Positions 25,933 through 26,205 of a DNA stretch of 64,000 nt are shown here, piece after piece. Positions within the stretch are counted from its first letter, which is position 1, and every line of letters starts with the position of its first letter. The notes under the pieces were generated by a model that ran no database searches, was not told the DNA's origin, and was given only the letters and a program-made list of their open reading frames with translations. The DNA is taken from the NCBI RefSeq assembly GCF_056746865.1, contig NZ_CM163382.1; one strand, given 5' to 3'. Position numbers and translations under genes: made by a program.

Positions 25933-26205
25933 ATGAAAAAAAGAAATTTCAGCGCAGAGTTTAAACGCGAATCCGCTCAACTGGTTGTTGACCAGAAATA
26001 CACGGTGGCAGATGCCGCGAAAGCTATGGATGTTGGCCTTTCCACAATGACAAGATGGGTCAAACAACTGCGTGATGAGCGTCAGGGCAAAACACCAAAA
26101 GCCTCTCCGATAACACCAGAACAAATCGAAATACGTAAGCTGAGGAAAAAGCTACAACGCATTGAAATGGAGAATGAAATATTAAAAAGGCTACCGCGCT
26201 CTTGA
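25933..26205 (+). CDS. insN: IS911 OrfA (HTH regulator), C-terminus altered by frameshift
   Basis: [49 protein letters not shown]...; ends ...ILKRLPRS instead of the expected ...[17 protein letters not shown]. Confidence 0.75.

Follow-up and report, generated by a model that had tools for sequence, protein, structure and literature searches.

A full-length IS911 element resident in a KpLE2-type island has very probably been inactivated by the loss of a single A from its A6G slippery heptamer, leaving a copy that cannot move by itself. The element lies in a 64,000-nucleotide stretch of contig NZ_CM163382.1 (NCBI RefSeq assembly GCF_056746865.1), hereafter the window, to which all coordinates refer unless stated otherwise. 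The finding belongs to a known kind, being ordinary mobile-element decay at the known IS911B insertion in the KpLE2 island, here in an old, fixed, full-length copy, and its biological weight is small because inactivated IS copies are commonplace. In practice it is of use to those who annotate genomes or take a census of IS elements, and the A5G defect also offers an explanation for the silence of IS911 in evolution experiments with REL606 and BL21.

The element occupies 25861–27108 on the plus strand (1248 bp, TGAAG…CTTCA) and has the extent of a full-length IS911-type element; the NCBI annotation describes it as an IS3-like element IS911 family transposase. By the ISfinder-style criterion, an isoform is a copy with >95% nucleotide identity to a named element. 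The copy in the window is an IS911 isoform on this basis, with five SNPs and one indel relative to 10 A6G copies and 97 of 98 positions shared with a published frameshift cassette. Compared with the A6G copies elsewhere, identity is ~99.5%, with five shared SNPs plus the missing A in ~1249 nt. The terminal imperfect inverted repeats end 5′-TG…CA-3′. The left inverted repeat (IRL, 25861–25896, plus strand, 36 bp) is identical in the 10 other copies, and the right inverted repeat (IRR, 27073–27108, minus strand) matches the published IRR oligonucleotide (PMC2909936) at 35 of 36 positions. The mismatch falls at IRR position 29, which is C where the published sequence has A, and corresponds to a G at 27080 on the plus strand. 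T is the plus-strand base at this position in the published IRR and in nine of the ten other copies, the tenth (L015) being disrupted there. Together with C25950 and G26019, G27080 marks the haplotype of the copy at this locus. The G27080 substitution within the 36-bp IRR also alters the tail of OrfB, where Ser is replaced by Ala (…NSNSVASFC to …NSNAVASFC). An Rfam scan of 25700–27300 at E ≤ 1 matched no family.

On its right side the element borders the remnant of a DUF2254 gene (27109–27463, minus strand), which was interrupted by the IS and whose C-terminal part is missing from the window. A 3-bp target-site duplication was looked for at the two ends of the copy and none was present, the left flank being GGC and the right flank AGA. 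In a genome with an intact DUF2254 gene, homology to the window starts exactly at the right end of the IS, and the rest of that gene, ~940 nt, is not in the window. The absence of this remainder, with homology beginning precisely at the IS boundary, indicates that the left flank was rearranged after insertion.

Direct reading of 26181–26190 gives ATTAAAAAGG, with five A residues at 26184–26188 followed by GG. The defective slippery site AAAAAGG (26184–26190, plus strand) is therefore A5G in place of the canonical A6G, and frame 0 passes through it as AAA (26185–26187) and AGG (26188–26190), reading TTA AAA AGG CTA… to an early stop. The truncated orfA′ (25933–26205, plus strand) extends from the ATG at 25933 to a TGA at 26203–26205 and encodes 90 aa. 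This OrfA′ consists of the first 85 residues of OrfA, including the HTH domain (Pfam HTH_Tnp_1, E = 1.7e-14), followed by an aberrant RLPRS that replaces the C-terminal 14 aa of OrfA (…MENEILK-RLPRS*). The stranded OrfA C terminus and its TAA are still encoded at 26187–26234 on the plus strand, now in the −1 frame relative to orfA′. The orfB frame (26186–27100, plus strand) opens with AAA GGC directly 3′ of a TAA at 26183–26185 and ends with TGA at 27098–27100, and its DDE domain is intact (Pfam rve, E = 3.5e-32; rve_3, E = 2.9e-10). Its phase relative to orfA is +1, as 26189 − 26185 = 4, or 1 mod 3. The layout of a functional IS911, in which orfB is at −1 and the overlap is at an A_AAA_AAG heptamer, is accordingly absent: here A5G stands in place of the heptamer and orfB lies at +1. 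On each of these points, namely five A residues at the slippery site, an orfA that ends early with its canonical C terminus intact one frame over, and orfB at +1 instead of −1, the preliminary description of this sequence proved correct.

The initiation of OrfB is affected as well. The ATT at 26181–26183 (plus strand), the AUU initiation codon of OrfB in IS911, now lies in the frame of the OrfA tail and is out of frame with orfB; AUU initiation of IS911 OrfB is a feature that Polard et al. reportedly described in 1991. An AUU-initiated OrfB in the orfB frame was not found, that frame being closed just upstream by the TAA at 26183–26185. With the frames shifted at A5G, the copy no longer encodes any of the three standard IS911 proteins in the usual manner.

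The published IS911 frameshift cassette (…GAAATATTAAAAAAGGCTACC…; PMC8136817, Table 1) contains A6G and gives ~12–13% −1 frameshifting. When window positions 26164–26260 were aligned with it, the sole difference was one A missing from the run, and so both the upstream GGAG and the downstream stem-loop are intact. The GGAG at 26169–26172 (plus strand) is unchanged relative to the cassette and has been named as the Shine–Dalgarno (SD)-like frameshift stimulator (PMC4066793). The downstream branched stem-loop stimulator (26196–26252, plus strand) is likewise unchanged in sequence; its predicted fold has an outer stem around two hairpins, and a three-way junction has been described (PMC5009743). 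Despite both stimulators being intact, the +1 position of orfB means that OrfAB cannot be made by programmed −1 frameshifting. A −1 slip from orfA lands in the frame of the OrfA tail and not in orfB, which bears out the earlier claim that such frameshifting cannot yield OrfAB from this copy. Judged from the frames, OrfAB would require a +1 or a −2 event. Set beside the Shigella dysenteriae reference IS911, the copy has the same ends, orfA, orfB, GGAG, AUU and stem-loop, but it differs in lacking one A, in having orfB at +1, in the substitution at IRR position 29 and in being without a 3-bp target duplication.

We propose that one A·T pair was lost from the A6G run, replication slippage in the homopolymer being the probable cause. 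In the sequence as it stands, ribosomes translating orfA stop five codons later and release the 90-aa OrfA′, which keeps the HTH and carries an aberrant tail. If the A_AAA tetramer that is left allows a −1 slip, this leads into the OrfA-tail frame and would only rebuild normal OrfA; A_AA.A is the weakest of six working −1 tetramers, which together span 0.26–5.6% even with a strong pseudoknot. The copy would thus make no useful transposase and be unable to move alone, and it would have persisted by vertical inheritance, with its left side rearranged later and, in K-12, with the element cut by IS30. Against immobility stand an orfB frame, a DDE domain and two ends that have survived essentially intact, the decay amounting to one base plus one IRR substitution. 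The NCBI label of 'programmed frameshift' and the occurrence of A6G at this locus in three genomes also count against it. With its ends nearly intact, mobilization in trans is conceivable, and an A6G copy may be able to supply the function; the IS911 transposase acts ~200-fold better in cis than in trans.

To count the A5G and A6G alleles in databases, identity bands from megablast searches with 71/72-nt probes were dropped, as partial matches of 100% enter the top band, and the counts were taken instead from evenly spaced ranks and a sorted plasmid list. With every 73rd record sampled from the 4308 matches to the 71-mer, the exact A5G sequence was present in the first 9 of ~60 evenly spaced ranks, corresponding to ~600–700 records, REL606 included. 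Many complete E. coli genomes share a 1251-nt segment at 100% identity, and it always adjoins the truncated DUF2254 gene. The A5G copy keeps one position in the leuX island, with a fragment of an MFS gene on one side and what remains of the DUF2254 gene on the other, in REL606, BLR(DE3), strain C and many clinical isolates. In BLR(DE3) the order is nanX-nanY-ythA, an adhesin-E gene, the MFS-gene fragment, IS911, the DUF2254 remnant and a BCCT transporter gene. The locus is a leuX-linked KpLE2-type island, and the flanking island is 99.8–100% conserved over 24 kb. Only three genomes (ECO_1_S, FCI48 and FCI23) have A6G at this locus, in an otherwise identical copy, and these may represent true reversion, polymorphism or homopolymer assembly error.

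The A5G allele with the haplotype of the locus was found at one chromosomal locus only. IS911 copies retrieved via the canonical 100-aa OrfA, from ten other chromosomal loci in three enterobacterial assemblies, were A6 in 10 of 10 cases. Alignment to IS911 references, a check to which the preliminary description had been open, gave the same picture, the published cassette being A6G and no A5G reference being found. The 71-mer is matched over its full length in ~1643 plasmid records, of which only two are exact for A5G, and essentially all plasmid-borne copies are A6G. Of the two exceptions, one record is 4.9 Mb long and evidently a chromosome under a wrong label. The second is a plasmid of E. 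albertii, whose copy differs in SNP haplotype and has a deletion besides several further indels; this points to an independent contraction in a decayed copy.

Experimental lineages carrying the allele provide a further view. REL606 has two IS911 copies and, like BL21, no A6G IS911, and no IS911 changes are listed after 50,000 generations (Table 1, PMC7881107). Mutation accumulation in a REL606 derivative yielded no detected IS911 events, although insN and ECB_04146 were transcribed. Published work on B strains was searched for reports of IS911 defects, and nothing specific emerged. With A6G in the copies that moved and contraction of the A-run recurring in dead copies, the population evidence fits immobility. 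The suggestion that the copy is probably immobile on its own is thereby supported, both by the restriction of the A5G haplotype to one chromosomal locus and by the lack of IS911 movement in the REL606-lineage experiments.

The same insertion is represented in E. coli K-12 by the IS911B/insO pseudogene of KpLE2. In MG1655 the left fragment of IS911B ends …ATATTAAAAAGGCTAC, with IS30D directly after, and carries the A5G allele; it corresponds to window positions 25861–26194, with 99.98% identity in context. The two differ in that IS30D follows immediately after …AAAAAGGCTAC in K-12, whereas the copy in the window is full length. The K-12 IS911B/insO pseudogene (K-12 coordinates 4507125–4509801) is a composite of two elements, to which the A5G copy contributed the left 334 bp. 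The equivalent of window positions 26195–30557, where the remaining part of IS911 is followed by the DUF2254 remnant, the BCCT transporter gene and the left portion of an IS600 copy, is absent in K-12 beside IS30D. The right fragment, IS911B-1, derives from a different IS911-like copy, which is 96.7% identical to the first and is present in the window at 32106–32896 in a 5′-truncated form.

A full-length version of this second copy was found in the chromosome of E. coli O145 RM9872, upstream of fecE, and it too has A5G, along with substitutions of its own. An A7 run just behind the start codon of orfA has lost 1 nt, a further 1-nt deletion is present, the left end is a variant one, and the PGAP label is 'frameshifted; internal stop'. 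The A5G of the O145 copy might have come from recombination between the two IS911-like copies, but this was rejected, as the left part has its own substitutions; the allele may stem from an independent contraction or from an older shared origin. The presence of A5G in this decayed copy suggests that homopolymer contraction recurs in decaying IS911 copies.

Three other explanations of the A5G sequence were weighed against inactivation by a one-base loss. Single-base homopolymer miscalls are common, and the three assemblies with A6G at the locus could be taken to mean that the true sequence is A6G and the copy functional. For a single-base difference from a reference the fitting control is reproducibility, and A5G is present in hundreds of independent complete genomes, including the reference-grade REL606, BLR(DE3), strain C and K-12 MG1655, and the five contigs inspected from other assemblies are all A5; the number and quality of these independent genomes exclude a sequencing or assembly error for practical purposes. 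A different view accepts the A5 run and holds that residual recoding still supplies some transposase, and hence weak autonomous activity, by a +1 slip of the P-site tRNA-Lys on AAA_AGG_C (giving OrfAB minus one Lys), by a −2 shift, or by transcriptional insertion of an A combined with a −1 slip. AAA_A permits perfect +1 re-pairing of tRNA-Lys, AGG is a codon with a sparse tRNA and frameshifting at tandem AGG_AGG has been reported in E. coli, and the copy retains an intact orfB, DDE domain and pair of ends. The site also formally resembles CUU_AGG_C of yeast Ty1, sharing with it a slippery P-site codon, the rare AGG and a GGC in the +1 frame. Yet the stimulators are positioned for −1 and not +1 frameshifting, and in an E. 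coli +1 reporter panel four sites rose significantly above the negative control, AAA_AGG_T (pspD) not being one of them. Frameshifting at rare Arg codons is, moreover, much lower at low mRNA levels. The transcriptional route is known from IS1447, which uses slippage on nine A residues; the IS911 copy has only five, a far shorter run, and stimulators that evolved for −1. Neither a spread of the haplotype nor IS911 movement in the REL606 lines has been seen, and we regard residual recoding as improbable.

The third alternative assigns a function to the truncated product. The 90-aa OrfA′, with its HTH and most of the leucine zipper, might be retained as a trans-acting regulator or inhibitor of incoming IS911-type elements, in effect a domesticated repressor. 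OrfA is known to regulate IS911 transposition, the HTH domain is kept (with a Pfam match), IS911 genes are transcribed in the REL606 derivative and many strains share the copy at 100% identity. This conservation carries no signal of selection, however, as the surrounding island is equally conserved (99.8–100% over 24 kb), and the copy has been deleted or disrupted in K-12 and other lineages. We consider a retained repressor slightly less probable still than residual recoding. The more speculative ideas can be put together as a chance Ty1-like AAA_AGG_C upstream of an intact RNA structure, which might give a low level of OrfAB minus one lysine, or else an OrfA′ kept as a trans-regulator; we give this combined proposition little credence. 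Were the Ty1-like +1 site to operate, the 'dead' copy would be weakly active, or would be inducible when tRNA-Arg(CCU) is limiting. Inactivation of a resident IS911 by loss of one A from the A6G run is the reading we retain.

An intact site for comparison is available in the same window. The preliminary description had noted an IS911-like element at 53.8 kb that keeps AAAAAAG, and this element is ISEc31 (52868–54130, minus strand). Its A6G is indeed intact at 53790–53796 (T6 at 53791–53796 and C at 53790), with orfB at −1 to orfA. ISEc31 has the same architecture and the same OrfA tail as the IS911 copy, but the two share only ~64% nucleotide identity, and they differ in the intact A6G and the −1 position of orfB in ISEc31. 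Copies of ISEc31 that are 99.7–100% identical occur in many contexts, such as beside papG, a vgrG/tssI gene and phage tail genes, and this sequence distribution is consistent with a currently active element.

The defect is hidden by the way in which the copy is annotated. The NCBI gene on the A5G copy (25933–27100) is labelled 'programmed frameshift' and is given as two joined pieces that span 1168 nt; it is not labelled a pseudogene. A −1 join is arithmetically impossible on a gene of 1168 nt, since it would give 1169 nt, which is not divisible by 3. The product assigned to this gene is nevertheless the canonical 389-aa OrfAB (…ILKKGYRAL…), although the five loci inspected are all A5. As 389 aa plus a stop codon occupy 1170 nt, the conceptual translation of a 1168-nt gene must re-read two bases. 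The A6G copies at the locus have 1169 nt and the product WP_267208731.1, and the A5G copies have WP_085948656.1. In a protein index the canonical 389-aa product is found in 3378 blocks of the collection, whereas the literal +1 product of 388 aa is found in only one record, which is non-PGAP. Exact look-ups of the junction peptides KRGY, KKAT, KKAY, KRLY, KRLP, KRY and KRL found none of the seven. These results are evidence that the 'programmed frameshift' label is mechanistically wrong, in that it needs a 2-nt back-step and not a −1 slip, and that it conceals the defect. With a 389-aa OrfAB assigned to A5 loci, counts of 'intact' or 'active' IS911 are inflated in E. coli B, C and many clinical strains.

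A second A-run lies near the 3′ end of the element, at 27068–27072. It is A5 in the locus copy and in 9 of the 10 copies that have A6G at the slippery site, L015 being disrupted there. The published IS911 primer O5 (PMC2909936) has A6 where these genomic copies have A5. With A6 in this run OrfB ends …YWKKL* and OrfAB has the published length of 382 aa, and with A5 OrfB terminates inside the IRR and OrfAB has the 389 aa of the genome annotation. The disagreement between the length of the reference protein and that of the genomic copies thus comes down to one homopolymer base in the 3′ A-run.
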